63,685 nt of DNA, from the IMG/VR virus record IMGVR_UViG_3300012943_000034, positions 1 to 63,685 of that record, one strand, 5' to 3'. The notes under the pieces are model-generated. The model did not search any database and was not told the DNA's origin. It was given only the letters and a program-made list of their open reading frames with translations. Each line of letters starts with the position of its first letter. The first letter of the stretch is position 1. The DNA comes from a virus (Duplodnaviria; Caudoviricetes). The position numbers and the translations under genes were made by a program. Below are positions 12,294-63,685 of the stretch, one piece after another.

Positions 12294-12433
12294 CGCTCTA
12301 ACTCGGCGGTGAGCCTCAAGTCTTTTCTTCCTGAGTGAAAATGCTAAACTCTCTCTGCAGAATTACTGCCCAACAAGCTCCACAGAAGTTCTTGTCAGGA
12401 GATCCGTATCTGGCATACGGAGGCCATAGGTTC

Positions 12434-12754: not shown

Positions 12755-12903
12755 TAATTTAGCGGAAACTTTAAATCAAAAAGCTTCCAAATAATTATCA
12801 ATACAATAACGATAGCAATTCCAAACAACCATGCGCCAAGACCGCCTGTCTCATAGGTGCCCATCTTTTTTGCGACTCCTAATAAACCAACTGATCCCAT
12901 CAT
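12754..12903 (-). CDS. small membrane protein, 49 aa (not in ORF track)
   Basis: ...GAWLFGIAIVIVLIIIWKLF...; its TAG overlaps tmRNA nucleotide 1. Confidence 0.55.
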   Translation of the reverse strand: MMGSVGLLGVAKKMGTYETGGLGAWLFGIAIVIVLIIIWKLFDLKFPLN

Positions 12904-19602: not shown

Positions 19603-20450
19603 TTAATACCTCTAGATGTCCAAAGCTTTGTAAAGAAAACTTCAAGATCTCTATATTGCTTCGCTGAATATTCCAACTTCTTTTTATTTGCAATTCTGTC
19701 TCTCTTAGATGAGTGCAAGTCCATATCTAAGTTGTTCTCAAAGAAGTGTGCCTTAGATGATTTAACAGTTTTAATTTTACTGTATTCAAATTTGTTGATA
19801 GCCCCATATCTGATTGCTGTGGTCCAACTGCTGGAGTCCACAGAATAAAAAGGGAAGTGGTAAAGTAATTTAGTTCTTGTGAAAGCGAACCCGTGGATTT
19901 TAATACCTCTATCATAAGCGTATTTGATGTATTTATTGTACAACATCATAGATTGACCTTTACGGATACCCTCAATAGCGATGTACTTTGATTTGGAGTT
20001 CTTGCAGAGCTTAACAAAGTCTTCCCAATTATTAAATGAATGATGTACTGTAATCAGCTTGTGGCCGATGCCAGCTTTGTTGATCTGATCTCTCCACTGA
20101 TCTACGGTGTCTTTTCCAACAAGCTCCTGAAGGTCTAGTTCACAGAAATAATCAAAGTGATCTGCCCACTCCTTCGCCCACTCAAAATAGTTTTTGAAAT
20201 AGGCGTGAGGATCTGGGACTGATGAATCTTTCTTTTTGCTTGAAGTAACTGAGATGCCCATTTTCTCGAAGAAACTATGGGCACCAGAATCAATTGTGAT
20301 GATCCCTTTATGCTGTCTTTCCTTTAGCTTCTTGAGAGAATTTTCTGTGATGTTCTTGTAGTAATAAGTTAAAAAAACATTAGTATCTAGCGGTACTGCT
20401 GGATCGTAGTTTTTACACTGAGTCTCATAAGCCGCTAAATATATTTTCAT
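19590..20450 (-). CDS. dpdA: DpdA-like DNA 7-deazaguanine transglycosylase (TGT fold)
   Basis: IDSGAHSF, ELD, VHH, YIAIEG, IHGFA, SVDSSSW; adjacent to folE/queE/queD. Confidence 0.75.
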   Translation of the reverse strand: MKIYLAAYETQCKNYDPAVPLDTNVFLTYYYKNITENSLKKLKERQHKGIITIDSGAHSFFEKMGISVTSSKKKDSSVPDPHAYFKNYFEWAKEWADHFDYFCELDLQELVGKDTVDQWRDQINKAGIGHKLITVHHSFNNWEDFVKLCKNSKSKYIAIEGIRKGQSMMLYNKYIKYAYDRGIKIHGFAFTRTKLLYHFPFYSVDSSSWTTAIRYGAINKFEYSKIKTVKSSKAHFFENNLDMDLHSSKRDRIANKKKLEYSAKQYRDLEVFFTKLWTSRGINWKE

Positions 20451-20785
20451 TTATAAACCTTTGCTCCGTTTTCGTTGTCTTCAAATACAGATGCAGAACA
20501 CAGACCTAATCCTATGATGAGAGACTTGGCAATTTGTTCACAAGAAGAGGTGCCCAACGTATGCAACCCATCTTTTACTGGATAAAGTTTTTGAATTAAT
20601 TCAAGTGCTCGGTGTTTTAACATAATGAATTCGGTATCACGATCATCGTGGCTTACAAGTTTTTCTGCCTCAACAAAGAAGACGTGCCTGTGTGGGTGCT
20701 TTAGATATTCCACTTCTTCATGGGGGCATAAAGGCCAGTAGTGCAATCCTTCAAACTGAAACTTCGCAATAACTGTTACCTTCAT
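20447..20785 (-). CDS. dpdL: DpdL-like QueD paralogue (putative CDG decarboxylase)
   Basis: T-fold pattern with LKHPHRHVF (LxxxHRHxF), SCEQIA, EDNENGA. Confidence 0.7.
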   Translation of the reverse strand: MKVTVIAKFQFEGLHYWPLCPHEEVEYLKHPHRHVFFVEAEKLVSHDDRDTEFIMLKHRALELIQKLYPVKDGLHTLGTSSCEQIAKSLIIGLGLCSASVFEDNENGAKVYK

Positions 20786-21378
20786 TTGATAAGCCCTAAG
20801 AATTCTGATCTCGCTTCTTGCTGTTCAAACAAACCTTTGATCGATGAAGTAACCATAGATGAATGTTGTTTCTTAGCTCCACGGGCACACATACAAAGAT
20901 GCTTTGCTTCAATCACAACAATGACACCTTTTGGCTTTAGAACTTCATTTAAAGTGTCTGCAATTTGTTGAGTAAGTTGCTCTTGAATCTGTAGTCTTCT
21001 TGAGAATACTTCAGTTAACCTAGCAAGCTTTGATAAGCCGACCACTCTGTCTCCCGGTATATAACCAATGTGAGCCTTGCCGAAGAACGGGATCATGTGA
21101 TGTTCGCAAGTAGAATACATCTCAATGTCTTTGCAAATGACCATTTGATTGTACTCGCCTTTTTCAAATGTAGTCCCAAGAACTTCTTTAGGGTCCATTG
21201 CATAACCACCAAATAATTCTTTAAAAGATTTTATCACACGCTTAGGAGTATCTAAAAGTCCTTCACGTTCTGGGTTTTCTCCAATGTGCTCAAGAAGTTT
21301 TCTAATTAAGTATTGGCCTTGATCGTCTTTTGTTAAGGTACTTTCATCCACTTGTGAGTCTGTAGACTTATTTTCCAT
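20782..21378 (-). CDS. folE: GTP cyclohydrolase I
   Basis: REGLLDTPKRV, STCEHHMIPFFG, GLSKLAR, RLQIQEQLT, HLCMCARG. Confidence 0.97.
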   Translation of the reverse strand: MENKSTDSQVDESTLTKDDQGQYLIRKLLEHIGENPEREGLLDTPKRVIKSFKELFGGYAMDPKEVLGTTFEKGEYNQMVICKDIEMYSTCEHHMIPFFGKAHIGYIPGDRVVGLSKLARLTEVFSRRLQIQEQLTQQIADTLNEVLKPKGVIVVIEAKHLCMCARGAKKQHSSMVTSSIKGLFEQQEARSEFLGLIK

Positions 21379-21938
21379 TGTGGGTTCTCCTTTATGTATT
21401 CAAAAATAGTTTGTAAGTTGTCATCGAATCCGTTGAATTCAGGGCTTAAGCTTAGGTGAGCACCTTGATCGTCTTTATGTTTATCTAAGATGGATAAATC
21501 AAACCCTTTTTCAATCACATACTTGTATTCATCGACTTTAAATCTCATCGCAGGATTGATAAAGAATTCTGGCAATCCTTTTTGCACATACTTCTTAGGT
21601 GAGCACGTAACAAAATCAATCCCCTCAACAGGAGGCATACTGCCGTTTGTTTCGCAGGCAACGTAGAATCCTAAGTTTTTAAATAGCTGTACAAGATGTG
21701 GAGTTTGTTTATTCATAAGCGGTTCACCGCCTGTGATCACAACAAATCTAGCCTTCTCTTTTTGGGCGAAATCAACTAGGTCAGTTGCATCCCATTCTTT
21801 GTAGGTGTTGTATTCTGTATCACACCAAGGGCATGAATAATTACAAAACGGTAGCCTTACAAATAAAGCTCTTTTACCAGCGTGAAATCCTTCGCCTTGA
21901 AATGTCCAAAACACATCGTTAATTCTAAAGGTTTCCAA
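21333..21938 (-). CDS. queE: 7-carboxy-7-deazaguanine synthase (radical SAM)
   Basis: TFQGEG, CNYSCPWCDT, VITGGEP, ETNG, SLQTHK; TTG start after GGAGGAG. Confidence 0.95.
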   Translation of the reverse strand: METFRINDVFWTFQGEGFHAGKRALFVRLPFCNYSCPWCDTEYNTYKEWDATDLVDFAQKEKARFVVITGGEPLMNKQTPHLVQLFKNLGFYVACETNGSMPPVEGIDFVTCSPKKYVQKGLPEFFINPAMRFKVDEYKYVIEKGFDLSILDKHKDDQGAHLSLSPEFNGFDDNLQTIFEYIKENPQWKISLQTHKWMKVP

Positions 21939-22398
21939 AATACTCCTCCGCTTTGAACCATATTGGTTCGCCTTCGTAGAAAGCAGAATTTTTCTCATGC
22001 TCTCTTACTTCAACTTTGTAACAACAAACACGACCTTTTTCTTCTTCTTTGAGCCATGTATTGACCCAATCCCAAAGGAAATCAGAAGTACCTTCCATCC
22101 CAACATTGTCAAGTATTACAAGCTTGCAAGCTCCAAGTAATTCCAAGTCTATAAACTTTGGTAAGAGTGGATCGTCTTTATTTATCAGCAATGTGTGATC
22201 AAATTTATCATCCAAAAAAGCTTTCAATTTTTTTAGCTTTCCAAAATGCATCACAAATTTTGTATCAGTTAATGAGTGAGCTTTGAAAAAGAAATGGAAT
22301 GATCTATCGTACCCGTGGATGAATTTACAATGCGAATCATCTCGCCATTGGCGGTGAGCACAGGAGTAATTAAAATAGCTCTTAGTTGAGGCATACAT
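21925..22398 (-). CDS. queD: 6-carboxytetrahydropterin synthase
   Basis: AHRQW...HCKFIHGY, FDHTLL, EHEKNSA. Confidence 0.92.
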   Translation of the reverse strand: MYASTKSYFNYSCAHRQWRDDSHCKFIHGYDRSFHFFFKAHSLTDTKFVMHFGKLKKLKAFLDDKFDHTLLINKDDPLLPKFIDLELLGACKLVILDNVGMEGTSDFLWDWVNTWLKEEEKGRVCCYKVEVREHEKNSAFYEGEPIWFKAEEYFGNL

Positions 22399-22531
22399 AT
22401 TTTTAAGTCCAATCAGAGGTACCTTATCTGTAACTAAACAGTTCTCAAATACCCTAGAACGAAGGTATCTATCAAAGCTTGCACAGGCAATAATAATTTG
22501 TTTTATCCATTGGTTTATTGCATTTAAAGTG

Positions 22532-22592
22532 TCTCAATTACTAATCTCAATTACTTTTTTTAATTGCTTTTTATAATGAGATGCGTTATTAT
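22532..22592 (+). promoter_or_regulatory. sigma70-type promoter of the plus-strand early region, with upstream direct repeat
   Basis: TTGCTT (22564)-17 bp-TATTAT (22587); TCTCAATTAC at 22532 and 22545; AAGGAG then ATG 22617. Confidence 0.7.
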
Positions 22593-22616
22593 TATGGTAT
22601 AGCTAAGGAGTACACA

Positions 22617-22802
22617 ATGAAGGTTCAAGTTTTTAAATCAGAGTTCGGTGAAGGTGGAATCGCAATAAGAGTAATAGTTGATAAGTATAACAACAGAATT
22701 GTTATACAAGAAGACCTAACGGTAATAACAATGGATGCAGGCGAGTTTTCAGCTTATACCATCGAAGCTCAATTTTCTTTTATCGAAGAAAAGGAGGTTT
22801 AA
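22617..22802 (+). CDS. small early hypothetical protein
   Basis: AAGGAG RBS, first ORF after promoter. Confidence 0.6.
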   Translation: MKVQVFKSEFGEGGIAIRVIVDKYNNRIVIQEDLTVITMDAGEFSAYTIEAQFSFIEEKEV

Positions 22803-22803
22803 A

Positions 22804-23163
22804 ATGAAAACGATTTATCAATGTAAAGAATGTAATAGTCAAGATTGTAATATTTCAGATACAGGCGTTCCATATTGCGTTTCCTGCGGAGCTTATGGTC
22901 CGTGTATTGGCTTTGGCGTAGCCAAGAACAGCCGCTTAGATAACTTTTTAAAGCTAAAAGATCACGCAATGATTGGTAAGGATTTTAAGAAGCTCACAGC
23001 ATTAGAGGTCGGCGAGTGTGTTCACTTTATAAATGAGAACGAAGGATTGGACTCGAACAAATACGCTGAGAAAGCAAATAGATGGAAGTTGGATCAACCT
23101 GAAGCTAGATCAAAAAACTATACGATAATGTGGTCGCTTTTGATACAGAGTAACAACAAATAA
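22804..23163 (+). CDS. Zn-ribbon protein
   Basis: AGGAGG RBS; CKEC...CVSC. Confidence 0.6.
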   Translation: MKTIYQCKECNSQDCNISDTGVPYCVSCGAYGPCIGFGVAKNSRLDNFLKLKDHAMIGKDFKKLTALEVGECVHFINENEGLDSNKYAEKANRWKLDQPEARSKNYTIMWSLLIQSNNK

Positions 23164-23173
23164 GGGAGGCCTT

Positions 23174-23338
23174 ATGACTGTTAAGAAATGTACTTGTGGT
23201 AAAGACTTAAAAACGAGGGACGTAACCAGCTTAGGAATCGTTGACGGTGTACTTTATCTAAACTGTAAAGCCTGCAAAACGACTCTAGTTATTCTCTCAA
23301 AACAAATGAAAAAATTAGTTTACGGGGAGGCCGCATGA
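23174..23338 (+). CDS. small Zn-ribbon protein, 54 aa (not in ORF track)
   Basis: GGGAGG RBS; MTVKKCTCG...LYLNCKACKTTL. Confidence 0.6.
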   Translation: MTVKKCTCGKDLKTRDVTSLGIVDGVLYLNCKACKTTLVILSKQMKKLVYGEAA

Positions 23339-24108
23339 GAACCCAAAATGTTTACCTAATAGTTATATTTTTATTGTTGGTATTTTTAACAAACATGGCG
23401 AGAGCAGAAGAAGATGTGAACAGTATTTTCTACACCCCTCCAGATGGAGAATGGGTTGATCCAATCGAAGGACCAAAGATCTACGAGTATTGGGCAAATG
23501 AAGTTGCCAAAGAAAAAGCTGAGAAATCAGAAAAAGAGAAGAAGGAAAAAGAAGAGGACACCAAGGAACAGGAGCAAAAAATTGTGCCACAAGAAATTGT
23601 AGCACAAGATGTATTACAAAAGATAATACAACCAAAGCGTAAGGCAAAAACGAAGTCTTTAACCTTCTCATTTGCGGCGATCACACACCACGGATTCTCA
23701 ATTGATAAAGAAGCATCTCCGTTACTCAAGAGAAAGCTTACAAGCTCTGGAAGGATCGTTTGGAATCCAGAGCTTGGAGTAATGTATCAGAACAAGAATA
23801 CGGTGATGGCAATGTCAGTGATAGACGATTGCTATGGAAACATGGCGGGCTACATAGGCGCTGGTAAGAAATGGAATCTTACTAAACACTTTTCAGCAGG
23901 ATTTATGATGGGGTTTTATATCAGACATCACGTACCTTACGAGAAGATGCCTGATTGGATGATCCACGGGAATACAAACATTATTCCATTCCCATTCATC
24001 ATCGCACAACAAGACATCCCAATTACTAAAGACTGGTCTGCTTCAATTATTTTAAATACAAACTACGCAATTAACCAACTTACATTTGGTTTAAAGAAGG
24101 AGTTCTAA
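23335..24108 (+). CDS. outer-membrane beta-barrel protein with signal peptide (PagP-like topology)
   Basis: Signal peptide ending ARA, charged linker, alternating beta strands, C-terminal FGLKKEF. Confidence 0.6.
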   Translation: MRTQNVYLIVIFLLLVFLTNMARAEEDVNSIFYTPPDGEWVDPIEGPKIYEYWANEVAKEKAEKSEKEKKEKEEDTKEQEQKIVPQEIVAQDVLQKIIQPKRKAKTKSLTFSFAAITHHGFSIDKEASPLLKRKLTSSGRIVWNPELGVMYQNKNTVMAMSVIDDCYGNMAGYIGAGKKWNLTKHFSAGFMMGFYIRHHVPYEKMPDWMIHGNTNIIPFPFIIAQQDIPITKDWSASIILNTNYAINQLTFGLKKEF

Positions 24109-24339
24109 ATGGGTAAGGTTGTTAATTTAAAACTCCAGGCATGGATAAGAAAAGTCTCAACAGAAGAGCTTAAGGTTGCAACGAATCAGGGATTAGAAGA
24201 TTTAAGGGTTCAACACGAGAAGCATTCAAAAGCTGGAACACTAGGATCAAAAGCATTTTCAAAAGAACTTGATTTAATAGAAGGGACTCTCCGTGCAATA
24301 AAAGAAGAGTTAGAAAGAAGAGGTATTACAAATGAGTGA
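24109..24339 (+). CDS. hypothetical protein
   Basis: AAGGAG RBS. Confidence 0.55.
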   Translation: MGKVVNLKLQAWIRKVSTEELKVATNQGLEDLRVQHEKHSKAGTLGSKAFSKELDLIEGTLRAIKEELERRGITNE

Positions 24340-24610
24340 ATTTAAACACTACGACGGATGCAAAGGTCAAGACCTAGATAACTGTAGTGCCTGTGCATTA
24401 CTAAACGCAGACAAAAGAGGTCCCAATTATGCTGGATGGCCCCTATCGTTTATGAAAGCCGGAAGAAGAATTCCAATAAGATACATGACAGCGTTACTGA
24501 TGGAAGTAGAAAGAAAAGATAACGATGCGTACGTTGAGAATCTAAAATCTGAATTAAAGAAACATGGATACGATATTGAAGTTATTAAAAGGCACTTGGG
24601 TATTTTATGA
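24332..24610 (+). CDS. hypothetical protein
   Basis: GAGG RBS, coupled. Confidence 0.55.
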   Translation: MSEFKHYDGCKGQDLDNCSACALLNADKRGPNYAGWPLSFMKAGRRIPIRYMTALLMEVERKDNDAYVENLKSELKKHGYDIEVIKRHLGIL

Positions 24611-24912
24611 ACAAGAAATTTAGCGACATGGTTGAAGACAATCTCATTATGGTATTTGACGGAATAAAAGAATGGGAAGTTGAGAACACAAGGACTGGTG
24701 ATGTCTATGAATTTAAAGCAGTAAGAAGAAATGAAAGCGATTCAATAGCCAGCAAAACAGAACAATTCAAAGGCTATAGAAATTTTCCGAACGGCTTTTG
24801 GCAAGTATTTCAAGGTGACACTCATGTTGGGCAAGCTGAAACATTCTCTCAAGCAAAAGAAATGGCTAAAGATTATTTGATCAAAACTTTAAGGAGCCAA
24901 AAAAATGGATAG
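24607..24912 (+). CDS. hypothetical protein
   Basis: Coupled ORF. Confidence 0.55.
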   Translation: MNKKFSDMVEDNLIMVFDGIKEWEVENTRTGDVYEFKAVRRNESDSIASKTEQFKGYRNFPNGFWQVFQGDTHVGQAETFSQAKEMAKDYLIKTLRSQKNG

Positions 24913-25105
24913 AACAAATTATTATAGAGATAGAGCTTTAAATTTAATAGAGAGTATCGAAGACAAAACTAAAGAGATGTTCCATGTTACACACCCAGAC
25001 CTTGCGCACAGACATTGTGATTGCATGGATGGCAAATATAAATGGCACCACTTTATTGAGTCACTTAACAAAGAAATAGATAAGCTAAACAGCTTACAAA
25101 ACTAG
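24905..25105 (+). CDS. hypothetical protein
   Basis: AAGGAG RBS. Confidence 0.55.
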   Translation: MDRTNYYRDRALNLIESIEDKTKEMFHVTHPDLAHRHCDCMDGKYKWHHFIESLNKEIDKLNSLQN

Positions 25106-25115
25106 GAGGTAGTAC

Positions 25116-25352
25116 GTGAGTCACATCGGTGATCTAATCAGGAGCACAAGAAAACAAAAGGGCATTTCACAAGTTGAAGTGGCAAAGAAGATCGGAAGAT
25201 CAAGCCAGTTCGTAGCAAATTGGGAGCGGGAGGCATCTAACCCGCCGCTAAATATAATAAGGCCAGTTTGTGAAGTTATCGGCCTTGGGATAAAAGAAGC
25301 GAAGCAAGCTCTTGTTCAAGACTATATCGCTAAACTAAACGAGGAAGTATGA
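25116..25352 (+). CDS. XRE/Cro-CI helix-turn-helix regulator
   Basis: IRSTRKQKGISQVEVAKKIGRSSQFVANWERE..NP. Confidence 0.9.
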   Translation: MSHIGDLIRSTRKQKGISQVEVAKKIGRSSQFVANWEREASNPPLNIIRPVCEVIGLGIKEAKQALVQDYIAKLNEEV

Positions 25353-25681
25353 GAATTGTTAGACCAAACACACGAGGCGAGTGGACTTATTTGTTCACTA
25401 CTGAAAAAACATTTATTGGATCAGTTGCTTTAGGCAATGCAACTCAATACCAAGTCTTTATGATTAAAGATGAAATGGACAGGCTGTATGTAGCAGTAAT
25501 GGGCAGAGGAGCTTATGAATTTTCAGGACACGCTCACCCAAGTTATGTACAGCAGAAGCTGGGATTAAAATTTGAAGGTGATGCATCAAACCTTGCTGAT
25601 TTTATCAACACACAGAACGGATCTTATTCTTACGAGAAGTACGGCCAGTATGATTCAAATTTATGTGTGAAGGAGAAGTGA
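25349..25681 (+). CDS. hypothetical protein
   Basis: ATGA-coupled ORF. Confidence 0.55.
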   Translation: MRIVRPNTRGEWTYLFTTEKTFIGSVALGNATQYQVFMIKDEMDRLYVAVMGRGAYEFSGHAHPSYVQQKLGLKFEGDASNLADFINTQNGSYSYEKYGQYDSNLCVKEK

Positions 25682-25938
25682 TGGCTAAAAGTTTAGAAAT
25701 CAGAACAGAATTAAATCTCGATCTGGAACTGACAGGAACCTATAAGCCAAAAACGGCAGATTACTTTGATCGAGGTTTTGGAAACTGGCTGCCCGGTGAG
25801 CCAGAAGGAGTTGAAGACCTTCAAGTGTTCATAAAAATAAATGGAGTAAACACAGACATAACAGAATTAATTTCTGATAGTGACTATGAAGCTTTACAAA
25901 ACGACTTCTGTTCTCATTTTAGAGATGAACAAAATTAA
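25663..25938 (+). CDS. acidic hypothetical protein (start probably 25681)
   Basis: AAGGAG before ATG 25681. Confidence 0.55.
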   Translation: MCEGEVMAKSLEIRTELNLDLELTGTYKPKTADYFDRGFGNWLPGEPEGVEDLQVFIKINGVNTDITELISDSDYEALQNDFCSHFRDEQN

Positions 25939-25989
25939 TTTGACTATCTAATTGAGTTTTGCAATGGTCACAATCTGGAAAGGGAATTT

Positions 25990-26196
25990 ATGAAATCAAT
26001 TCAACAGGCACTTAGAAAAAAGAAAGAAGAACAGGAGAAGGACGACAAGGTTCATATCCAAGTAACTATGAAACGTTCATTCCATAAATCAGTTGAAGAA
26101 GTTCTCAAAGAGAACGGAGACAAATGGCAGGAAGTCCTTCACACCGCTTTGGAGCTTTATGTCAAGGAAGCTAAAGAAGAAAAAGCCCGCAAGTAA
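25990..26196 (+). CDS. ribbon-helix-helix-like DNA-binding protein
   Basis: KVHIQVTM strand followed by two amphipathic helices. Confidence 0.5.
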   Translation: MKSIQQALRKKKEEQEKDDKVHIQVTMKRSFHKSVEEVLKENGDKWQEVLHTALELYVKEAKEEKARK

Positions 26197-26213
26197 TCTC
26201 AAACTCGCCCGAT

Positions 26214-26248
26214 TTGACAACTTAAGTCAATTAAACTATGATTGTTAA
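26214..26248 (+). promoter_or_regulatory. sigma70 promoter with overlapping inverted repeat; probably leaderless transcript
   Basis: TTGACA (26214)-17 bp-TATGAT (26237), ATG 7 nt later; TTGAC-N7-GTCAA at 26214-26230. Confidence 0.75.
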
Positions 26249-26704
26249 ATGGGTAAACCAATCACGACCCAAAACAAAGAAAACGGAAGTCTCTTTGAGT
26301 CAATGTTCAAAGCCCGTGCCCAAATTAACGGTATGCTTTGTGAAAAGAATCACCTCACCGCTCGCTATCTACCCGGTGGCAGAGTTAAAGTCGTAAAATC
26401 AGAATTAGATTATAGAGTCGTTACCCAAGATGGTAAGGTCGGGTACTTCGATTGCAAGACCCTCTCTGGTCACTCATTCACTTATTCAATGATCGACGAA
26501 GCTCAACTGGAACGTTCAGTCACCCACAATTACTGGCGTGTACCTTCTGGCTTTATTGTATGGTTCAGGTCTTCTAACCAAATAGTGTTCTATAAAGGTG
26601 CTGACATTAAATTAAAGGGGGCTGGATGCTCTTTTGAGGCCACGGATGGCCGTTTACTTGGTCGCATCGAGAACTTCGATTTAAAGCTTATTATGGCTGT
26701 GTAA
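26249..26704 (+). CDS. RecU-like Holliday junction resolvase
   Basis: GSLFE...LDY...FDCKT...Q...GFIVWF. Confidence 0.75.
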   Translation: MGKPITTQNKENGSLFESMFKARAQINGMLCEKNHLTARYLPGGRVKVVKSELDYRVVTQDGKVGYFDCKTLSGHSFTYSMIDEAQLERSVTHNYWRVPSGFIVWFRSSNQIVFYKGADIKLKGAGCSFEATDGRLLGRIENFDLKLIMAV

Positions 26705-27120
26705 ATACACGTCTAAATACACGTACAACTGGACGTATCGATATATTTAAATATATCGACCATATATCTTTAGCCGATGCGTCAAGTCTACAAAATGTAG
26801 GGTTTCGGCATAAAATTCGGCATAAGTTATGCCGTTGATATCAGATGATATGATCAATTTGTTTATATCATATTATATCAATTCGATTTTAGAGATCAAA
26901 AAATTCAGCAGGGGTTCAGGAAAAACAATCAAACAATTCTAGGTACTTAGAAGTTTAAACTGATAAAAACTGGTATAATTATACAGCTTAATATTTAAGC
27001 AGGAAAATACTAATATTAGTATAAAATGATGCCTATTGATGGAGATCATTTTCGGCATAAACGTGTTAACAAAATGCCAAATCGTTAACACATCAGATCG
27101 ATATGTTATCTGAAACGATA
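26702..27120. repeat. Palindrome/direct-repeat array A (non-coding)
   Basis: More than 10 distinct inverted repeats in about 420 bp, e.g. TCGATATATTTAAATATATCGA, ATACTAATATTAGTAT. Confidence 0.8.
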
Positions 27121-27122
27121 TA

Positions 27123-49566: not shown

Positions 49567-50120
49567 TCCTCCTCGGGTATAACTATTTCTTCTGTAATTG
49601 TTTGATCGCCTGTTTTAATCGTAGCTTCTGCTTCAACTTTTTCAATTGTGGTCATTGACTCACTCAAGTTGAATGCTATTCCAAAGCTAACGTCCATCTG
49701 GCTGCGACCTTCGTAACCAGTATTCATCAACTCGGTTAGGTCTGCAACACTTCCTATTAGCCATACGGCAATTCCAGCCTTTCTGAGGTTCTCTTGAACT
49801 GTCCAAAGTTCTAAGCTCTGCTGCCAGAGTGACATATAGTTGTAAGCTTCTTCTTTTGAGTTCCCATAACAGTTAAAAGAAATGGTCATGCGTCTTTGAC
49901 CACCTACGTTATGAGTATCACCGATCCACTCATGTGAGTCATCGCCACTTTTGTCTGCAGGGTTTAGGGTTTTGTAAGAAAAATATGGCTTACAAGGCCT
50001 TGGTACGTCTTGTGTCTGCTGCTCTGCCATTATGACAGTTGTCTTGGTAACTCGTTCCATTTCTCTCACGAGAGCGATTCTAATTGCGTTAAAATCTATT
50101 GGGAAGTTAGGTGTACTCAT
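49563..50120 (-). CDS. tail terminator/neck protein
   Basis: Synteny; PRP.KPY...YEGRSQMDV.F. Confidence 0.75.
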   Translation of the reverse strand: MSTPNFPIDFNAIRIALVREMERVTKTTVIMAEQQTQDVPRPCKPYFSYKTLNPADKSGDDSHEWIGDTHNVGGQRRMTISFNCYGNSKEEAYNYMSLWQQSLELWTVQENLRKAGIAVWLIGSVADLTELMNTGYEGRSQMDVSFGIAFNLSESMTTIEKVEAEATIKTGDQTITEEIVIPEEE

Positions 50121-56077: not shown

Positions 56078-56313
56078 CCGAGTATCCTTTTTTTAATTGC
56101 GGCACACACTTGCTTGAACTCTTTATCGTTCCCGTCCAGTGTACAGCGCATTCGTGTCGCTATTAAGTCAACTATCTCACTATCGGTCAGTTGCTTATAG
56201 ATTTTATCATAAGCCTTTGTGGCTTTAAAAAACAAGTGGTCCTCCCTGGAGCAACCATACTTCTCAAAGACTTCAAAGTGTTCTTGTATCATATATTTAA
56301 ACTCATTAGGCAT
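56074..56313 (-). CDS. hypothetical protein
   Basis: Coupled ORF. Confidence 0.5.
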   Translation of the reverse strand: MPNEFKYMIQEHFEVFEKYGCSREDHLFFKATKAYDKIYKQLTDSEIVDLIATRMRCTLDGNDKEFKQVCAAIKKRILG

Positions 56314-57293
56314 AAGCAGTTTGGGTGTGATTCAGTTGGGATCATAACTGCCCTTCCGTCTGGGAGTATCCATGCTTCATCGAGACCTACTTCTTCTCCA
56401 TCCATATCTTCGCAAATAGGACATGGATCTGTGTCCGTTGTCCAAACTTTTTTAGCAGTTGTTTTATCTATAAGACCTTCTGCTGCGGCATTATCCCACA
56501 CTTGATGCTGTCCCTCGTTTGAGGCATTCGCAATCTCTGTACGACCAATGGTCATTGCACGAGAACTAAGTAAACGATCTTGGTATGAATCAACTAAGCG
56601 ATCGATTCGCTCAGGAGATACGTTCCTTGCTTCAAGACCACTCTGATAATTCATTACAGCTTGTTCATATCTTGGTGTAAGTCCGATAGAACCTTTTATC
56701 ATTCTAGCTACATCACGAGGCGTGAGAGCATTCGAGAACGATCTACGTACCGCATTTTGTATGACTACCTGTACATCTTTTGTGATGTTCGTAACCATAT
56801 TCCCCGTTACTTCACTGATGTATTTAGCTATTTCAGGGTTCTTTAGATCATATCTAGCATTGGGATTCTTTGGCGAAGGCAATGGGTTTCTTAAATCCAT
56901 GTGTATCTCAAAAGGTAAATCAGCTTTCTCAACTTTAGATGGCAAGTAAGTGAGAGCATTTTTACCAGACAATCTCATCGCTTGTTCTATTGTTGGGACA
57001 ATAGCTATGATGTCTTTAGTGAATTGCTCCCACGGAATAATGGACAGGATCGCTGCCTCATCGCCTTTAATGAAAGCATGGTACAGTTTCTCTTCTGAGA
57101 CCATTGCCTTAAGTTTACGAAATGCACGGACCAACTGTATCTCTACAGATCGACCCATCTGCTTATTCATGTTCTCAAGCTTCACGTTGGCAACTGTACG
57201 ACGAGCCTTACGGATTCGCACATTTGCCTTATGGTTCTTGAAAACAAATCTAGGCAGCTTTTTTTGTACTTTCCTAAGCTTATCTAAATCCAT
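56289..57293 (-). CDS. MuF/SPP1 gp7-like minor head protein
   Basis: RAMTIGRTE, KKVW...CPIC..MDG, HPNCLC. Confidence 0.88.
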   Translation of the reverse strand: MDLDKLRKVQKKLPRFVFKNHKANVRIRKARRTVANVKLENMNKQMGRSVEIQLVRAFRKLKAMVSEEKLYHAFIKGDEAAILSIIPWEQFTKDIIAIVPTIEQAMRLSGKNALTYLPSKVEKADLPFEIHMDLRNPLPSPKNPNARYDLKNPEIAKYISEVTGNMVTNITKDVQVVIQNAVRRSFSNALTPRDVARMIKGSIGLTPRYEQAVMNYQSGLEARNVSPERIDRLVDSYQDRLLSSRAMTIGRTEIANASNEGQHQVWDNAAAEGLIDKTTAKKVWTTDTDPCPICEDMDGEEVGLDEAWILPDGRAVMIPTESHPNCLCLMSLNI

Positions 57294-58789
57294 TAAAACG
57301 CCTTCGGTGCTCCATTAGGATACATTCTAGTTCCAAGTTCTTCTGCAACTAATTGTTGAACAGACTTCTCGGGATTCACAGGTGTAGTATCTGGTGCCAC
57401 GTAGTTAGGCCCGGCATCTACTGGTATCTCAACGATGTTATTCTTTCCTGTTCCGTCCATAGGTTGTGGCTTCGTATTCGCATCTTCTGTTGATTCAAGC
57501 GGCTCTGGTAATGAAGCTGCTTTCATTAAATGTTTCTCTAGCTCTGGGTTCGGGAACAATGGGTAACCTGATGATGCCAAGTTTGTTAAGTAAGTGCCTA
57601 GTTCTGCAAGGTCTTGAGACTCTAGGTCACCATGACAAAGCTTTGGGTACTCCGAAACTTTAAGGTTATTGAGATCACATAATTGTGGAATAGCATGGCG
57701 GTTAAATGTGTCGCAAATGATCTGTAGAAATGCGCCAATCGCTTGGGCAAATAATTGTGTCTTAGATGAGGCAAGTGCAAATGATCCAACCTTCTCATGC
57801 CCCAACAAAATGAAGTCAGCTAATGCAGACATCGCAATGCGCTGGTCATATCTCTGTACGATTTTATCTGTATCAAACTGTCTAGAACCACCTGTGCTAA
57901 GAAGCTTTAAGTCGTACATTAGATTTCCATTTGCGTCGTATGCTGAAGGGAATACAACGCCTTCCTGCTCATCTCTTCTAATGTTTGTAACGATTGTTTT
58001 GATCAATTCTAGTGTGTGCTTTTGATCTGCAGATGCACAGTTAGATAATAACTCTGGCGGTACAAGTGCAACTGGTAACCCTGCAAGGTCACGCTCGATA
58101 CCAATACCCTCGATGTTCTCAATGTTCTTTTTCATGTACCATGAGCGATAAGCGTTACGGAAAATAGACTTACCTTCTGGATTGTTCTTAGCTGAAGTTG
58201 TTCTAAATAATAAAGCCTTCTCCATTGGGATTGTAGTCATGTGGAAGTGAGGTGGTGACAACTGTTCAACGCCCATGATGTCTCCGTTGTCTGCAAAGAT
58301 CCATCTGTATAAAGTGTCTTGCGATCTAATAGGTAAACGCTTCCAGCCGATTTTCCCGTCATTAAATTTAGATGAATCATCAGGAGTTAATTGCTTACCC
58401 AATCTCTTTTTAAATACTTTTTCGTGATAAGAGTGGCCGTACCCAATGAACGAGAGGATCTCTGAAATAGTATCCGTCCAAGTGTCTGACATATCGTGCA
58501 TACATGATTCAACAAACTCCGCTGCCTCTATATCAAACTTTTGTTCAGAGCCGGGTTGTATTCTCCAGTCTACTCCACGTGTGAGTGTTTGGATTGCGTA
58601 CATGATCGCACCAACAATAGGATCGTTATTGAGCATCTCTTTATAGACTTCAATACCTTTCCAGCCCGTAAGCTCCTGAAGGAATTCCTCGAAGATGAAT
58701 CCTGAATATCTTTTGAGTCCGGTTTGACCCAGTTGTCTCATATCTAATACGGTTGGCTTTTGACTTTCTTCTGCCATTATTTCCTCCAA
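57293..58789 (-). CDS. portal protein (DUF935-like)
   Basis: Follows terminase; NPEGKSIFR, GIERDLAGLP, GSFALA. Confidence 0.88.
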   Translation of the reverse strand: MEEIMAEESQKPTVLDMRQLGQTGLKRYSGFIFEEFLQELTGWKGIEVYKEMLNNDPIVGAIMYAIQTLTRGVDWRIQPGSEQKFDIEAAEFVESCMHDMSDTWTDTISEILSFIGYGHSYHEKVFKKRLGKQLTPDDSSKFNDGKIGWKRLPIRSQDTLYRWIFADNGDIMGVEQLSPPHFHMTTIPMEKALLFRTTSAKNNPEGKSIFRNAYRSWYMKKNIENIEGIGIERDLAGLPVALVPPELLSNCASADQKHTLELIKTIVTNIRRDEQEGVVFPSAYDANGNLMYDLKLLSTGGSRQFDTDKIVQRYDQRIAMSALADFILLGHEKVGSFALASSKTQLFAQAIGAFLQIICDTFNRHAIPQLCDLNNLKVSEYPKLCHGDLESQDLAELGTYLTNLASSGYPLFPNPELEKHLMKAASLPEPLESTEDANTKPQPMDGTGKNNIVEIPVDAGPNYVAPDTTPVNPEKSVQQLVAEELGTRMYPNGAPKAF

Positions 58790-60273
58790 AGCGACGGTTT
58801 ATCGAAACTGACTGGTGCCCATCCGGTAAGCGGTGTCCTAGTAGTTAGATCATTCACTGCTTGCGATGTTGAGTCAACTTGGTCATCGTTTTTACCATAC
58901 GGGAAAAAACTCCATTCGTTAACATAATCATCGACCCATAGTGCTATTTCTCGACTTGGTAGATATAGGTTCCCTGACTCGGCTTGCGGTGAAATTGCTT
59001 GGGCACGAGCCAGCTTTGTACCATTCGGTTTAACTGCTATGATTCCAGTGATTTTAGATTTAAGTGTATCAATGAGGGCTGCTCCGTTGGCCGCATCCTC
59101 TACTAATTTACGGGTAGCACGAGGCCATTTTGCAGACATTGCCTCAAACGCTCTTAGTTGCTGAGTAAATCCCATTTGGGCACGGACCTGATCTAGTAGG
59201 TATTTGTCTGCACCCTTACGGCCCCAAACTTGGCCCACTGTGTAGTCGTTATTTTTACCATCTTTGTATGTTAAATCCCATGACTGGATAAGCTCATCAA
59301 ACTCTGGGAGTTCAGCATACGATTTATAATACTTCCACCACTCACGATTAATTACTGAGCCGCCTTCTGGTGCCGGGTTCTGCTGGTAAAGTGCTGACCA
59401 TGCACGAGAAGAGGTGGCTTTCACAGCTTTCATATCTTCTGGTGTAAACACTTCAGGCCATAGCATCTCGCCTATTTGACGTGGATCTTCTGGGTTCGAG
59501 TCATCGTATTTTTCTGCAGGCAAAGACAAAACAACCCACTGATCTGCGTCAGGCATCTTCTTCATAAAGTCTAGGAGCATTCCAGATAGATCGCCCTCAT
59601 GCCATCGAGTTTGGGTAATTAGGATCCGGCCGGGGTTCCCATGTGAGTCAGGTCTTACCCTTGATCTCGCAGTAGTTACGAACCAGTTAAAGTTTCTGAG
59701 TCTAATAACTTCTGAGTCGGCTTCTTGCTGGTTCTTTACAGGGTCATCAATAATTAAAGTGTTCGCAGTTTTACCAGTGAGAGAACCGCCCACACCCACC
59801 GCATGGTACTTTCCTCTACGTCCAATTATCTCAAACATACTGGCGTTGTTCTTCCACCCGTCTTGGCCTTTCGCAATTTGAGTTGATGGGAAAAGGCTTT
59901 TGTACTTAGGTGTTTCCATGATTCTGTTTACGTCTGATTTAAACGTCTGCGTGAATTGTGCACCATAAGTTGCGGCAATGATCTGATGGTCAGGATCTTT
60001 CCCCAATATAAATGGAGGCAGCCTACGTGAGACCATCTCTGATTTACCAATTTGAGGCTGAATAAAGATCATCAAACGTGTGATCTCAAAGTTAAGAAAC
60101 TTCTCTAAATATTTATCAATTAATCTGTGATGCCAATTTAATTTGAATTCAGGGAATGTGTATTTAGTAAATGCGAGGTAGTTCTCCGAGGCTACTAAGC
60201 CGACCTTCTCCATCTGTACGTCGTAGGCCTGATCAATAGCTTTGTCGACAACATCACTATTCATCTTGTTCAT
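58777..60273 (-). CDS. terL: terminase large subunit
   Basis: QPQIGKS, LIIDDPVK, TRWHEGDL, LYQQNP, SWD, KNDDQVDS. Confidence 0.95.
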   Translation of the reverse strand: MNKMNSDVVDKAIDQAYDVQMEKVGLVASENYLAFTKYTFPEFKLNWHHRLIDKYLEKFLNFEITRLMIFIQPQIGKSEMVSRRLPPFILGKDPDHQIIAATYGAQFTQTFKSDVNRIMETPKYKSLFPSTQIAKGQDGWKNNASMFEIIGRRGKYHAVGVGGSLTGKTANTLIIDDPVKNQQEADSEVIRLRNFNWFVTTARSRVRPDSHGNPGRILITQTRWHEGDLSGMLLDFMKKMPDADQWVVLSLPAEKYDDSNPEDPRQIGEMLWPEVFTPEDMKAVKATSSRAWSALYQQNPAPEGGSVINREWWKYYKSYAELPEFDELIQSWDLTYKDGKNNDYTVGQVWGRKGADKYLLDQVRAQMGFTQQLRAFEAMSAKWPRATRKLVEDAANGAALIDTLKSKITGIIAVKPNGTKLARAQAISPQAESGNLYLPSREIALWVDDYVNEWSFFPYGKNDDQVDSTSQAVNDLTTRTPLTGWAPVSFDKPSLWRK

Positions 60274-60829
60274 TTTTGTACTCTCTCATCGAATCAATCT
60301 TGGCATCATCATACCCAAGCTCTTCTAACAGTTTTGTTGCCTCACGGATCTCTTTCAACTTCTCACCAGATGCAAGCTCATGCGTATGTCTAATTGGCTT
60401 CTCCGGATCTCCTTCGATAACCCGTCTGTCAGAATAGTCGTGCATATTCTTCATCAGCATTGCCCACATACCTTGCGCTGGTGTCGTCGCCTCATACTCT
60501 CTGTCGTATAAAGCATTGCCTTGCTTGTCGAACACCACGTTGCCCGCTTTGTCTCTCACCACTGTTTCTTTTGTGATACGACGGAGCTGACCCATCGCCC
60601 CCATTTTGCCTATGTCCTCATAGAACTTAAGAGAGTATTCTTTACCCATGTTTTTGGCGTACAAGAATTCTGAGTGTTCTCTAGTCCAATTATATAATGT
60701 AGTGCGGCAAGTATGTACAATAGCTCCAAAAGATTCAAAGGAGTTTCCTTCTTTCATGTGCTTTATGAGCATCTCGCAGTATTCAGGTTTATATAAGGTA
60801 GGTTGTCCCGCCACTATCCCTCCGGCCAT
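60257..60829 (-). CDS. terS: terminase small subunit
   Basis: GQPTLYKPEYC, helix-turn-helix TLYNW..EH.EF; upstream of terL. Confidence 0.85.
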   Translation of the reverse strand: MAGGIVAGQPTLYKPEYCEMLIKHMKEGNSFESFGAIVHTCRTTLYNWTREHSEFLYAKNMGKEYSLKFYEDIGKMGAMGQLRRITKETVVRDKAGNVVFDKQGNALYDREYEATTPAQGMWAMLMKNMHDYSDRRVIEGDPEKPIRHTHELASGEKLKEIREATKLLEELGYDDAKIDSMREYKNEQDE

Positions 60830-61009
60830 GTAATTATTAATTGAATAAATTAATTATGGCAATTGATTGATTAGAGTGGAAGACCGGATTAAGGCGAGGA
60901 CCTCACACCTACCGCCTATGTATGAAGTAGGCAGCAGACAACGATGTGTGGGTCCTCTTAGATAGTAATTGGATTAGAATTAATACTGACTCTCTATCGG
61001 CCTAAGCTT

Positions 61010-62235
61010 CCGTTTCTTAAATATTATTTAATATTATTACGTAATATTCTTACAATTTAGACGTCTTTTAAAATGCTTCTAAATTGCTAAATGATTCCAA
61101 TGGGTTGAATGACTTAATGTAAAGATATGTAAAGTGATTCCTGCTTACATTGTAAATTCAGATAGTTACCCGGGTAAGGTTTCTTGCTTACAGTGTATGC
61201 AAGTGTTTACAAGTGTACACACCTGTTAACACCAAGAAATTATACCCGATGTGATATAAAAATGGGTGATGTGACACAAATTATACTCGATCGGGTATAA
61301 CACTGTTATAGGTCTTCTGAGATTTTTAAGGCTTTTTCCGGGATTTTTTTGTCGATTTCAGGGATAACGGGTCCGATTTCTGGGTTTTAGTGGCGGCCCG
61401 AGGGTTCTCGCCCATGCTCTAGATCACAAAACGAGATGGCCCTCGGTTTAAGCAACACCACAAGTCAATTTAATATATATTATTTAATACGCAATATCTT
61501 TTTGCGCATTTGACGTCAGAATTGACGCCTGAGTATCCAATTAATATTTTGTAATATTAATACAACAAGTTTGTAGATTAATATTAATGATATTTCTTAT
61601 ATCATAAGATTGTTTCTCTAATGATTACAGGTACTTCTCTTCAATAGTTAATGTCAGCAGTAACTTCTAGGAGATTCTTTCTACAATTTCTAGTGATTTT
61701 GTTGCAGAAAAACGGCAACTTTTTTATTGCCGATCAGGAACAAAATTATAGCTTTCACTACTATCGAATATGGCTAGACCTATAAGCGTTTCTTATGGAT
61801 GAATGATGATGTGTAGCGAGCGTGTTACACATGGTTGATAATAATATCAATACTGGTTTATAAAAAGGTTGGTCTTTTAGCCAACTGGAGTTGGGTTTTG
61901 TGATTATTCGCATAAGTACGCATATTATATACAAAGGGGGTCTCATGTATGTATACATCTATACGTGGAGGAATTCCAATAACTTGATGTACCTCGTCAC
62001 AAACTTTTATACATTCGGACACACGCTTCACGCATAAATTATGCAAAAATGTATGAATAAACTCACTCGGCTGATCTTATTTGAACTACTAAAACTAGTA
62101 GATGCCAGTAATTGGCTAGTAGATCGCTAGTAAAGAAAAATGAAGATTTCTTTACTTACGGGTTTTCTTAGTAACGTTCAATTGAGTAAATTTGATCAAA
62201 TTTGATTAAAACCGATCAATTTGCACGGTTTCTGC
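61010..62235. repeat. Palindrome array B (non-coding) flanking a candidate packaging site
   Basis: More than 20 distinct inverted repeats, e.g. TTATACTCGATCGGGTATAA, AAATTTGATCAAATTT, TTACCCGGGTAA. Confidence 0.8.
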
Positions 62236-62241
62236 AATGTG

Positions 62242-62880
62242 TTACAGACGTTTGAACAGCATATAATGACCGCAATCGCCGTTGAATCTGTAGGTGCGCT
62301 CCAAAATTCTCTCTTCAGTGTAGACCAATTTAAAAGACTTTTTACCCAACATGATGTGGTAGTCCTCAACCGATCTGGGCGTACAACAATGATCCATGGG
62401 ATTGTTAAGATCTCCTGACTTTCTAAGCGGGTTGGTCTCTTCAGTTAAAAGAACGTAGCCACCCTTTTTAGTGATGCGAGCTATTTCTGCAGCGGCCTCG
62501 ATTGCTTCAGATGTTCTGAGATGCTGGAGAACTGTGTGCGATAAAACTAGGTTAAAATGTTCTACGGGGAACACTTTTTGAGCCAAACTTTTGACGTGTG
62601 AAACGCTCACCTGAGGATAGAGCTGCTGGGCTTTCTCAAACAAGATGTCTTCCCTCTCCACGGCGCAAACCTTGAGTGCGAGCTCAACTAAAACGCCTAG
62701 GTTCCTTCCAAAGCCACATCCGAAGTCTAAAGCTGATAACATTTTGTATGCGTTATGACTGCTCCACCCGCAATTTTCAGATACGATCCTTCTAATATCA
62801 GACCATTCGCTATGGCAACGGGCTGCAAATTCTGGAAAGTCTGCGTCTACAACATCTTTGATCTGGTACTGGTATCTCAT
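62242..62880 (-). CDS. class I SAM methyltransferase
   Basis: ALDFGCGFGR, VER, FNLVLSHTVLQHL, RITKKGG. Confidence 0.88.
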   Translation of the reverse strand: MRYQYQIKDVVDADFPEFAARCHSEWSDIRRIVSENCGWSSHNAYKMLSALDFGCGFGRNLGVLVELALKVCAVEREDILFEKAQQLYPQVSVSHVKSLAQKVFPVEHFNLVLSHTVLQHLRTSEAIEAAAEIARITKKGGYVLLTEETNPLRKSGDLNNPMDHCCTPRSVEDYHIMLGKKSFKLVYTEERILERTYRFNGDCGHYMLFKRL

Positions 62881-63077
62881 TTTTCCTCGAATTTATATTT
62901 TACGACCTTGCCCACTTGTGAGCGAGGTATCTCCTCGGTTGGCAGGAATACTACGATCTGTTTTTCTTTATAGGTGATCTGAAAGAACAAGCCTACTCCT
63001 TCGAGCGGATAGCTCATACCTTTCATCTTTACTACGTTTTGAACCACTGAATTATCTGACTTGGGTTTGGTAGCCAT
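62877..63077 (-). CDS. hypothetical protein
   Basis: Coupled ORF. Confidence 0.5.
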   Translation of the reverse strand: MATKPKSDNSVVQNVVKMKGMSYPLEGVGLFFQITYKEKQIVVFLPTEEIPRSQVGKVVKYKFEEK

Positions 63078-63685
63078 GATTCGAGAGTAACAGGAAGAAC
63101 ACGAGCTACGTCAACTGCTTCTACGCAATTCGCTGGGGTTTGGTAAACGTCCCAAACGCCCCCTAGTGAGAAGTCTTTCATATTGTAGCCCATTTGACCG
63201 TTCCTCATGTGGGTAAGTAAATGAGGCTGCTTTACGGTTGCCAGATAAGCGATCTTCGCCTCTCCTGCTGCCGCAATATGGAGTGGTGCTGAATCATTTG
63301 TTATGACGTGCTTAGATTTAACGCATAGCCACATTAGGTCTGACAAGGACAGCTTGTTTCTCAAATCATAAACTCGGTCTGTGCAAGGGCTGAAGTCCAA
63401 TACACCACGAGCTGAATCCATTTGATCTCCAACAATTACTGGGTACAAACCGTTTGCTTCACACTCTCGAATACACTTCTGCCACCAGCTTGCAGGGATG
63501 GTCTTAGACTGCCAATGTTTCCCCGGGTGCATTAGGACCATGTGATCACCTACAAACTCTTGCAAGTCCATCTCTGATTCTTCTCTAGTAATTTTTAAGT
63601 TCAGCTCCCAATACTTAGGCGGGAGATCTCTTCCAAACATTGCAAGGCAAGGGTAGTTTACAGAGTGGATAAGAAGTTGTTGGAA
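63032..63685 (-). CDS. GT9 glycosyltransferase, 3' part (gene starts at 429 across the origin)
   Basis: HPGKHWQSKT, DLRNKLS, TNDSAPLHIAAAGEA. Confidence 0.85.
   Translation of the reverse strand, partial: FQQLLIHSVNYPCLAMFGRDLPPKYWELNLKITREESEMDLQEFVGDHMVLMHPGKHWQSKTIPASWWQKCIRECEANGLYPVIVGDQMDSARGVLDFSPCTDRVYDLRNKLSLSDLMWLCVKSKHVITNDSAPLHIAAAGEAKIAYLATVKQPHLLTHMRNGQMGYNMKDFSLGGVWDVYQTPANCVEAVDVARVLPVTLESWLPNPSQIIQWFKT
63563..63685. repeat. Terminal direct repeat copy 2
   Basis: Identical to 1-123. Confidence 0.95.

Follow-up and report, generated by a model that had tools for sequence, protein, structure and literature searches.

The DNA considered here is IMG/VR virus record IMGVR_UViG_3300012943_000034, a tailed phage genome classed as carrying direct terminal repeats and as 100% complete, and the window referred to throughout is this entire record of 63,685 bp. 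The phage genome is 93% coding and its minus strand carries almost all genes, with a small plus-strand module at 22735–26704. Its largest gap free of open reading frames (ORFs) is a tract of 1,412 bp (60830–62241, GC 0.34) between terS, the small terminase subunit gene, and a methyltransferase gene; the next largest gaps measure 736 and 606 bp, the 606-bp one containing a transfer-messenger RNA (tmRNA) gene. To our knowledge, tailed-phage genomes seldom contain non-coding tracts of such length. A previous interpretation made from the letters alone (the sequence-only reading) had proposed that positions 61010–62235, which the tract encloses, form a non-coding library of different palindromes and a candidate decoy array for host DNA-binding proteins, and all 24 strings that it quoted are found at exactly the coordinates it gave.

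The tract is the densest palindrome spot of the genome. Counting perfect inverted repeats with arms of at least 6 nt and spacers of at most 10 nt, we find 22 palindromes in 61010–62235, as against 4.54 ± 2.18 in dinucleotide shuffles, none of 300 of which reaches 22. When the shuffles are confined to blocks of 30, 50, 100 or 200 nt the expectation is 5.0–6.4 palindromes (0 of 200 reach 22 at each block size), and AT-rich patches are therefore not the cause of the excess. The claim that palindrome density lies far above composition-matched controls is thus upheld under both global and local shuffling (22 against 4.5–6.4). A G or C is present in the arm of 16 of the 22 palindromes, compared with 3.7 ± 2.1 in shuffled sequence (0 of 200 shuffles). 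Segments of 1,226 nt taken across the contig hold a mean of 3.4 palindromes with a standard deviation of 3.0, and the maximum, 22, falls at 61001. Expressed per kilobase, the gap carries 15–18 palindromes, other intergenic DNA 5.8 (18 in 3,085 nt) and coding DNA 2.3 (139 in 59,386 nt), making the tract about three times denser than the remaining intergenic DNA and about seven times denser than coding DNA.

This excess consists mainly of loopless palindromes, which form the core of the signal: 12 have spacers of 0–2 nt where 1.60 ± 1.21 are expected, and 10 have spacers of 3–10 nt where 3.44 ± 1.78 are expected (0 of 300 shuffles in either class). The prevalence of loopless elements, already remarked upon in the sequence-only reading, fits double-stranded DNA sites better than RNA hairpins. 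No such loopless excess is seen in the divergent region 21999–22734 (1 against 0.99). The palindromes also proved to be mostly non-identical, as had been described, since 6-nt arms are common only to an AT-only family with ATTAAT, AATATT and TAATAT arms, which accounts for 6 of the 23 elements in the gap.

The persistence of these sites stands against a genome that otherwise avoids them. Outside the gap, palindromic hexamers number 615, compared with 908 expected under a Markov model or 1,074 from base composition, with 15 of the 64 absent genome-wide and 38 of the 64 occurring no more than three times; the gap itself is not depleted (40 against 36 or 29), and other intergenic DNA has 45 where 53 are expected. 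CGCG is absent from the whole window against an expectation of 55, and GATC shows no avoidance (352 against 309). Such a pattern points to strong pressure from restriction systems, among them one of the host that is specific for CGCG. Hexamers with no more than three copies elsewhere are 7.8 times denser in the gap when palindromic and 2.3 times denser when equally rare but non-palindromic, in agreement with the earlier remark that the tract contains many 6-bp cores of the restriction type. The gap holds two of the three genome copies of GACGTC, one of the two of CCCGGG and one of the two of ACTAGT. CGCG and the 15 absent hexamers are missing in the gap as well, where a rough estimate gives only about two expected occurrences. 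Because the gap palindromes persist against the pressure acting on the rest of the genome, their presence argues for retention for a function, without identifying which. This contrast between avoidance and retention also provides a simple, transferable finder of functional symmetric sites in uncultured phage genomes.

By codon usage and protein similarity, the claim that the region is non-coding likewise holds. No ORF of at least 20 aa on either strand of the gap has a positive codon-usage score, and six gap ORFs compared with the PHROG database gave no match below an E value of 0.017. Four gap ORFs, all on the plus strand, are preceded by a Shine–Dalgarno (SD)-like motif and score −0.04 to −0.07, as opposed to 0.055–0.26 for 14 small phage genes. 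Hidden genes were rejected on these negative codon-usage scores and the lack of PHROG matches, and an alternative genetic code is not indicated, given the dense coding under table 11 elsewhere in the genome.

From right to left, the features of the tract and its surroundings, together with a second tract elsewhere in the genome, are as follows:

62242–62880, minus strand: class-I SAM methyltransferase gene, the other flank of the gap, upstream of the tract.
62170–62221: about four 10-bp-periodic TTGATCAAAT-like units directly past the methyltransferase stop codon (repeat family D7, inverted pair I9).
62188–62203: 16-bp perfect palindrome AAATTTGATCAAATTT within the TTGATCAAAT-like run (TRF period 10 at 62188–62210; exact repeat at spacing 10).
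62086–62156: CTACTA-N4-TAGTAG, then CTAGTAGAT at spacings of 21 and 11 (TRF period 11 at 62095–62132).
Within 62086–62156: inverted repeat AGTAAAGAAA-N8-TTTCTTTACT with 10-bp arms, after the CTAGTAGAT repeats.
61868–61894: two terminator-like hairpins set back to back, each strand having its T-run (minus strand 61885–61868; plus strand 61881–61894).
61713–61732, minus strand: terminator-like hairpin CGGCAA-N8-TTGCCG, then TTTTT (7 pairs, 4 of them GC).
61463–61619: AT-rich, easily melted block with loopless palindromes TAATATATATTA, ATTAATATT-N4-AATATTAAT and ATTAATATTAAT, plus ATGATAT-N5-ATATCAT.
Inside 61463–61619: TTGACG(T/C)C direct repeat with TGACGTCA.
61396–61447, minus strand: GC-rich hairpin CCGAGGG...CCCTCGG (arms taken from the sequence), with a terminator-like stem at 61445–61432 followed by TTTTGTG.
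61320–61390: phased T-tracts and CGATTTC(A/T)GGG repeated at a spacing of 21.
61130–61310: repeat and palindrome core with TTCyTGCTTACAkTGTA twice, 43 bp apart, and TTACCCGGGTAA, GTGTACAC, TGTTAACA and TATAACAcTGTTATA (families D1, D2 and D8).
61192–61231: three to four 10-bp-periodic AGTGTnnnCA units within the core.
Within the core 61130–61310: AAATTATACyCGAT twice, 41 bp apart, each reading CGrGTATAATTT (with a −10-like TATAAT) on the minus strand.
61010–61095: AT-rich block with overlapping loopless palindromes TTAAATAtTATTTAA and TATTACGTAATA, and also CAATTTAGA-N16-TCTAAATTG.
60896–60957, minus strand: long GC-rich hairpin of 62 nt in the presumed terS leader, about 70–130 nt upstream of the terS ATG.
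60257–60829, minus strand: terS (190 aa), the gene preceded by the tract, whose homologs adjoin terL in relatives.
58777–60273: terL (Terminase_6N/6C).
57293–58789: portal gene (Portal_Mu).
56289–57293: gene for a Mu F-like protein.
26705–27122: second, shorter palindrome-rich non-coding tract, at a convergent gene junction after the Holliday-junction resolvase gene.

Alongside its palindromes the tract contains repeats arranged in register with the DNA helix. Exact direct repeats of at least 7 nt lying 8–64 bp apart number 23, compared with 7.3 ± 2.8 in local shuffles (0 of 200), and for 15 of the 23 the spacing differs by no more than 1.5 bp from a multiple of 10.5 (binomial 2.8e-4), a proportion that is 36% (140 of 388) in the rest of the genome. 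TRF reports six small arrays with periods of 10–13. The iteron-like 10-bp arrays at 61192–61231 (three to four units, 75–80% alike) and 62170–62221 have short, degenerate units, and the latter array, built of TTGATCAAAT-like units, resembles the phased TGATCA-type (GATC-containing) hexamers of P1 pac. T-tracts start at 61323, 61333, 61344 and 61356, at spacings of 10, 11 and 12, and from this phasing of A/T-tracts an intrinsic bend is predicted at 61320–61390. A CRISPR-like or long tandem array was rejected, the only arrays being the six tiny ones, as was the recent duplication of a unit of about 460 bp, since the two units of AT block plus GC hairpin align only patchily around a common motif of about 28 nt.

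The tract also ranks among the least stable duplexes of the genome, taking places 1, 2 and 8 at 40 bp and 1 and 3 at 80 bp. The least stable 40-bp duplex is 61018–61057 (AT 0.90) and the least stable 80-bp duplex is 61540–61619, with the block 61463–61619 holding 40-bp ranks 2 and 8, including 61574–61613. As in iteron origins, an AT-rich element of the unwinding type lies beside repeats. Hairpins with the attributes of rho-independent terminators (a GC-containing stem, a loop of 3–8 nt and a T-run) number four against 1.0 ± 1.1 in shuffles, three on the transcribed strand and one on the other, and cover just three to four of the palindromes. The box CGrGTATAATTT occurs in exactly two copies, 41 bp apart and both facing terS, and CGRGTATAATTT is found in exact form nowhere else in the window; the best promoter-like site is at 61309–61280 on the minus strand, with 10 of 12 matches. 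The tract abuts the terS ATG, and the repeat arrays sit 360–1,390 bp upstream of it. An SD-like motif precedes 40 of 55 genes checked, and the terS ATG is without one; this ATG (60829) lies in AT-rich sequence, which can be read as a 7-5-7 inverted repeat at 60836–60854. A promoter or operator motif used across the phage was rejected, as CGRGTATAATTT, TTAC-N4-GTAA and AAATTTGATCAAATTT do not occur above chance elsewhere.

Comparison with relatives gives the tract no counterpart. No homologous DNA was found by blastn in phages or plasmids, none below an E value of 0.1 in 41 fetched loci and the rest of the window, and a 21-mer probe had no exact match in metagenome contigs. Searches through terL or the methyltransferase yielded no close relatives in the collections searched, and identity to the nearest non-self terS is 53%. 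Among complete relatives the closest is G001 (63,266 bp, GC 56%), which has all of the structural module in unchanged order, with protein identities of 32–70% (60% for terL), and little in common beyond it; its gap upstream of terS is 419 bp long and contains no palindromes. Since G001 has only the structural module in common and a short, palindrome-free gap, the extra DNA travels with the non-structural modules. In nine closer relatives (L023, L024, L025, L027, L034, L036, L039, L040 and L041), each counted because its terS ORF was called and about 790 nt or more of sequence precede it, the gap never exceeds 496 bp; L020, L021, L022, L026, L035, L037, L038 and L042 were left out, the contig end being too close or the terS frame uncertain. 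Among 18 distant terS relatives it is at most 705 bp. No palindrome excess was found in eight comparator gaps, the lowest value being 12 of 200 shuffles, in L019. Judged from these comparisons, the tract is lineage-specific. The 496-bp upstream region of L036, whose terS is 45% identical, starts with a sequence (297–380) that by eye resembles a tRNA.

The combination of symmetric sites, phased repeats, meltable DNA and terminators enables us to propose, with a probability of about 0.5, that the tract is a composite double-stranded DNA control region, in which an operon boundary and a late leader are united with a nucleoprotein site resembling an origin or pac. Its anatomy and statistics are computed, and from them we infer every binding partner and activity named here. 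The tract would act as double-stranded DNA in the phage's own DNA transactions, being neither one RNA nor a coding remnant. In the order of transcription, which runs from right to left, the first part would be 62241–61700, where phased repeat arrays also lie and terminator hairpins would close the upstream DNA-modification operon. The segment 61620–61130 would form an origin-like or packaging-recognition-like nucleoprotein core, combining meltable AT blocks, the T-tract bend, iteron-like repeats and candidate symmetric sites for dimeric proteins with two tandem −10-like boxes directed at terS. Finally, 61100–60830 would constitute the leader of the late operon, with a second meltable block, the stable GC-rich hairpin and the terS start. 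It is most likely that the binders are phage-encoded, the helix-turn-helix N-terminus of terS and ORFan regulators or initiators being the candidates, and that host bending proteins would assist them.

The gene content of the phage has consequences for this model. The sequence-only reading would place the tract near a virion DNA end; the head genes (Terminase_6, Portal_Mu and Mu F) point to packaging by the headful mechanism, whose ends would be scattered. For recombination the phage encodes a RecT-like protein, an exonuclease of the RecE/ExoVIII type and a Holliday-junction resolvase, and recombination-driven formation of concatemers would be expected, as in SPP1. As no polymerase or initiator was recognized among about 50 proteins scanned, the phage should need an origin served by host enzymes. 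Were the tract confirmed as an origin and packaging hub, it would mark the start of replication in an ORFan-rich phage with modified DNA, and would offer a handle on its initiator and regulators.

Several observations weigh against a control region of this kind. The collections searched contain no homologous tract, and in relatives with terS proteins 35–53% identical the upstream gap measures 0–496 bp, from which it follows that 1.4 kb cannot be needed for a late promoter and pac alone. No polymerase, initiator, helicase or primase families were detected among the roughly 50 proteins scanned, many of the phage proteins being ORFans, nor was a binding protein or recognizable transcription regulator found in the same set. 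The iteron-like repeats are short and merely 75–92% alike, promoter matches of the sigma-70 type show no enrichment (5 against 7.1 ± 2.5), and DnaA boxes (TTWTNCACA) are absent from 60830–62241, with four in the window as a whole. Origins and pac sites known to us also usually show fewer different palindromes.

What is already known is the multi-element non-coding control region of tailed phages, of which the tract would be a variant. The long non-coding tracts that have been studied, among them T5 iss, the SPP1 origins and pac, and lambda cos and ori, contain the switches of injection, replication and packaging. Lambda cos and ori and P1 pac consist of short repeats in phase, to which terS or an initiator binds, with bending and AT-rich DNA, in 100–400 bp and with one or two repeat families. 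The tract is unusual in its length, in the variety of its symmetric sites and in its contrast with a palindrome-avoiding genome. Judged by layout, its closest described analog is the untranslated Repeat Region 3 of T5, of which it is not a member. This region comprises about 1.2 kb of untranslated DNA with palindromes palC to palJ, inverted repeats and families of direct repeats, and is a candidate injection stop signal with helical-turn spacing and bending; it would work as DNA by way of a bound protein, for which host DnaA has been put forward (10.1101/866236). The T5 region is like the tract in being untranslated and about 1.2 kb long within a gene-dense genome, and in having different palindromes and helical spacing. 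However, the T5 region is part of a long terminal repeat and so sits at a defined end of its genome, as opposed to the headful packaging suggested here; it has paired DnaA boxes within inverted repeats, and 60830–62241 has none; and its repeat order is conserved in 25 relatives, whereas the tract has no counterpart in the relatives found. There is no sequence similarity between the two.

By analogy, the nearest functional models for the tract would be the pac site and origins of SPP1. In SPP1, pac overlaps the late promoters, the ribosome-binding site and the start of gene 1 (terS), while oriR and oriL combine direct repeats with an AT-rich element for unwinding and one of these origins is placed between late genes, inside a long intergenic segment, and the phage relies on a RecT-type annealase, a 5′–3′ exonuclease and a Holliday-junction resolvase (PMC6316719). 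All three recombination functions are thus found in both phages. The SPP1 elements span a few hundred base pairs and contain repeated boxes for one protein each (gp1 or gp38), whereas the tract covers 1.4 kb, its symmetric sites are mostly unlike each other and no initiator was seen among the proteins scanned. Genomes of Gordonia phages reportedly carry 1–18 palindromes each, with no role assigned to them (PMC4524720).

Other explanations for the tract have to be set against the control region proposed above. It is unlikely that genes for small non-coding RNAs are clustered there together with RNA leaders, the hairpins acting in RNA as small RNAs, as terminators or antiterminators, and as elements for the processing or stability of late mRNA. 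The four terminator-like hairpins and the two long GC-rich hairpins would suit such a cluster, as would the fold of the terS leader (60830–61000, minus strand; −41.7 kcal/mol, z-score −3.9, with 0 of 200 shuffles equally stable) and the mean fold z-score of the transcribed strand, which is −1.58 in the gap against −0.46 across 60 background windows. By eye, an AT-rich promoter-like block also lies about 100 nt 5′ of the stem at 61445–61432 and might give rise to a transcript of about 100 nt. However, the covariance models of Rfam 15 gave no match at E ≤ 1 in 60500–62600 (in the whole window they detect only the tmRNA at 12434–12754), the 12 of 22 palindromes with spacers of 0–2 nt and AT-rich arms of 6–8 bp would make poor RNA hairpins, the z-scores of the strongest fold segment (61150–61300) are about equal on both strands, and helical phasing of direct repeats would be meaningless in RNA. 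A single structured RNA was rejected on the lack of an Rfam match, the modest z-scores of the local hairpins and the strand symmetry of the strongest segment. A neutral history also appears improbable, in which genes or moron cassettes decayed, palindromes accrued by template-switch (quasi-palindrome) mutation without frame constraint, and a short promoter or pac part alone is functional. The tract is missing in all available relatives and similar to nothing searched, the other sizeable non-coding tract (26705–27122) has the same loopless excess, as a mutational bias would predict, and leftover terminators and promoter-like boxes would suit decayed cassettes. Yet a phage whose genome is 93% coding and whose capsid limits genome size would rarely retain 1.4 kb without use, palindromic hexamers purged elsewhere persist in the gap, phased repeats and T-tracts are unexpected from mutation alone, the loopless excess is lacking at 21999–22734 (1 against 0.99), and no residual coding potential or protein similarity is left.

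The interpretation offered in the sequence-only reading, that varied symmetric sites titrate host regulators, nucleoid proteins or defense nucleases, fares less well than its observations, and we regard it as very unlikely. Extended to both tracts, it would make them a counter-defense or host-takeover device whose varied loopless palindromes, the otherwise rarest restriction-type hexamers of the genome among them, occupy host dimeric DNA-binding proteins, to which we give little credence; that the palindromes would act as sacrificial or sequestering sites at entry, or as copy number rises in replication, is likewise a long shot. Titration of this kind would be consistent with loopless palindromes of many sequences (12 against 1.6, with arms common to only 6 of 23), with the gathering of rare palindromic hexamers in the gap (7.8-fold, against 2.3-fold for rare non-palindromes), with the visible restriction pressure on the genome and with a lineage-specific tract, as often seen with accessory counter-defense functions. 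There is, in addition, the proposal in the T5 account that host DnaA binds its repeat region (10.1101/866236). Against this, a single copy per site per genome would be a weak titrant, a cut at a single-copy decoy would still break the genome, and the gap lacks the sites that the genome avoids most (CGCG and the 15 absent hexamers), a weak objection given that about two were expected there. Published arrays of decoy transcription-factor sites reportedly carry many copies of one binding site. Decoy arrays and ParB-parS systems present the same site many times over, whereas the arms in the tract are mostly unique. In the lactococcal 'Per' phenotype, cloned phage origin fragments titrate phage proteins rather than host ones, and only on a multicopy plasmid. 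A keyword search of the open-access literature, limited in scope, found no phage DNA decoy for host regulators. Moreover, phased repeats, a bend, meltable blocks, terminators and tandem −10-like boxes would be unneeded in a decoy and are hallmarks of cis-acting control regions. If binding of host factors were nevertheless true, it would represent a new kind of DNA-level host manipulation and a nucleic-acid counterpart of protein DNA mimics.

Under the control-region reading, the shorter tract at 26705–27122 may be a partner site of the main one, by analogy with the two origins of SPP1. It contains five loopless palindromes where 0.81 are expected (0 of 300 shuffles), including a perfect 22-bp palindrome, TCGATATATTTAAATATATCGA (26738–26759), and a perfect 16-bp one, ATACTAATATTAGTAT (27007–27022), and among the 80-bp duplexes of the genome the second least stable lies within it. 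The palindrome GCATAA-N-TTATGC is found in exact form only at 26820 and 62032, once in each tract. CGGCATAAgTTATGCCG is also present in 26705–27122 with extra GGCATAA copies; across the genome SGCATAA is not enriched (17 against 13.5), and one AAATTTGATCA-like copy falls inside the tmRNA gene. An inverted repeat at 22685–22707 with 9-bp arms (GTATAACAA-N5-TTGTTATAC), about 30 bp 5′ of the first plus-strand gene (22735), is operator-like, and its half-site is similar to TATAACAcTGTTATA at 61296 and GTATAATTATAC at 26973. Close by, inside the 'intergenic' region 21999–22734, a plus-strand ATG at 22618 is preceded by AAGGAG (ctaaggagtacacaATG) when examined by eye, and a short unlisted gene may start there.

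The genes upstream of the main tract belong to a wider context. Family-9 glycosyltransferases are encoded beside the methyltransferase, upstream of the gap, so that the SAM methyltransferase and two family-9 glycosyltransferases adjoin the tract. A 7-deazaguanine DNA-modification gene set is distributed over 17918–21998 on the minus strand and over 62242–63640 and 365–1495, and includes a QueE-like radical SAM protein, GTP cyclohydrolase I, a DpdA/TGT-like transglycosylase, and glycosyltransferase-like and ParB-like proteins. On this gene content the phage DNA is probably hypermodified. The end repeat of the window is a 123-bp overlap, of the kind given by circular-type assembly, and an independent assembly spans the window's end within one contig; for these two reasons the window ends are assembly breakpoints, and virion ends are not implied.

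The contig has no tRNA genes. Its full-length tmRNA gene (12434–12754, minus strand; Rfam RF00023, 100.3 bits, E 5.5e-38, model positions 1–374) was missed by ARAGORN and accounts for the 606-bp 'gap' at 12294–12899. In the search for a host, the 3′ end of this tmRNA had no exact match and terS relatives within bacterial genomes amounted to two distant matches only. Two wastewater runs contain small pieces of the phage, mostly diverged; a 212-nt contig from one of them (run X3) is identical to window positions 49908–50119, and most other pieces there are less than 90% alike, which suggests that mosaic relatives occur in another habitat.

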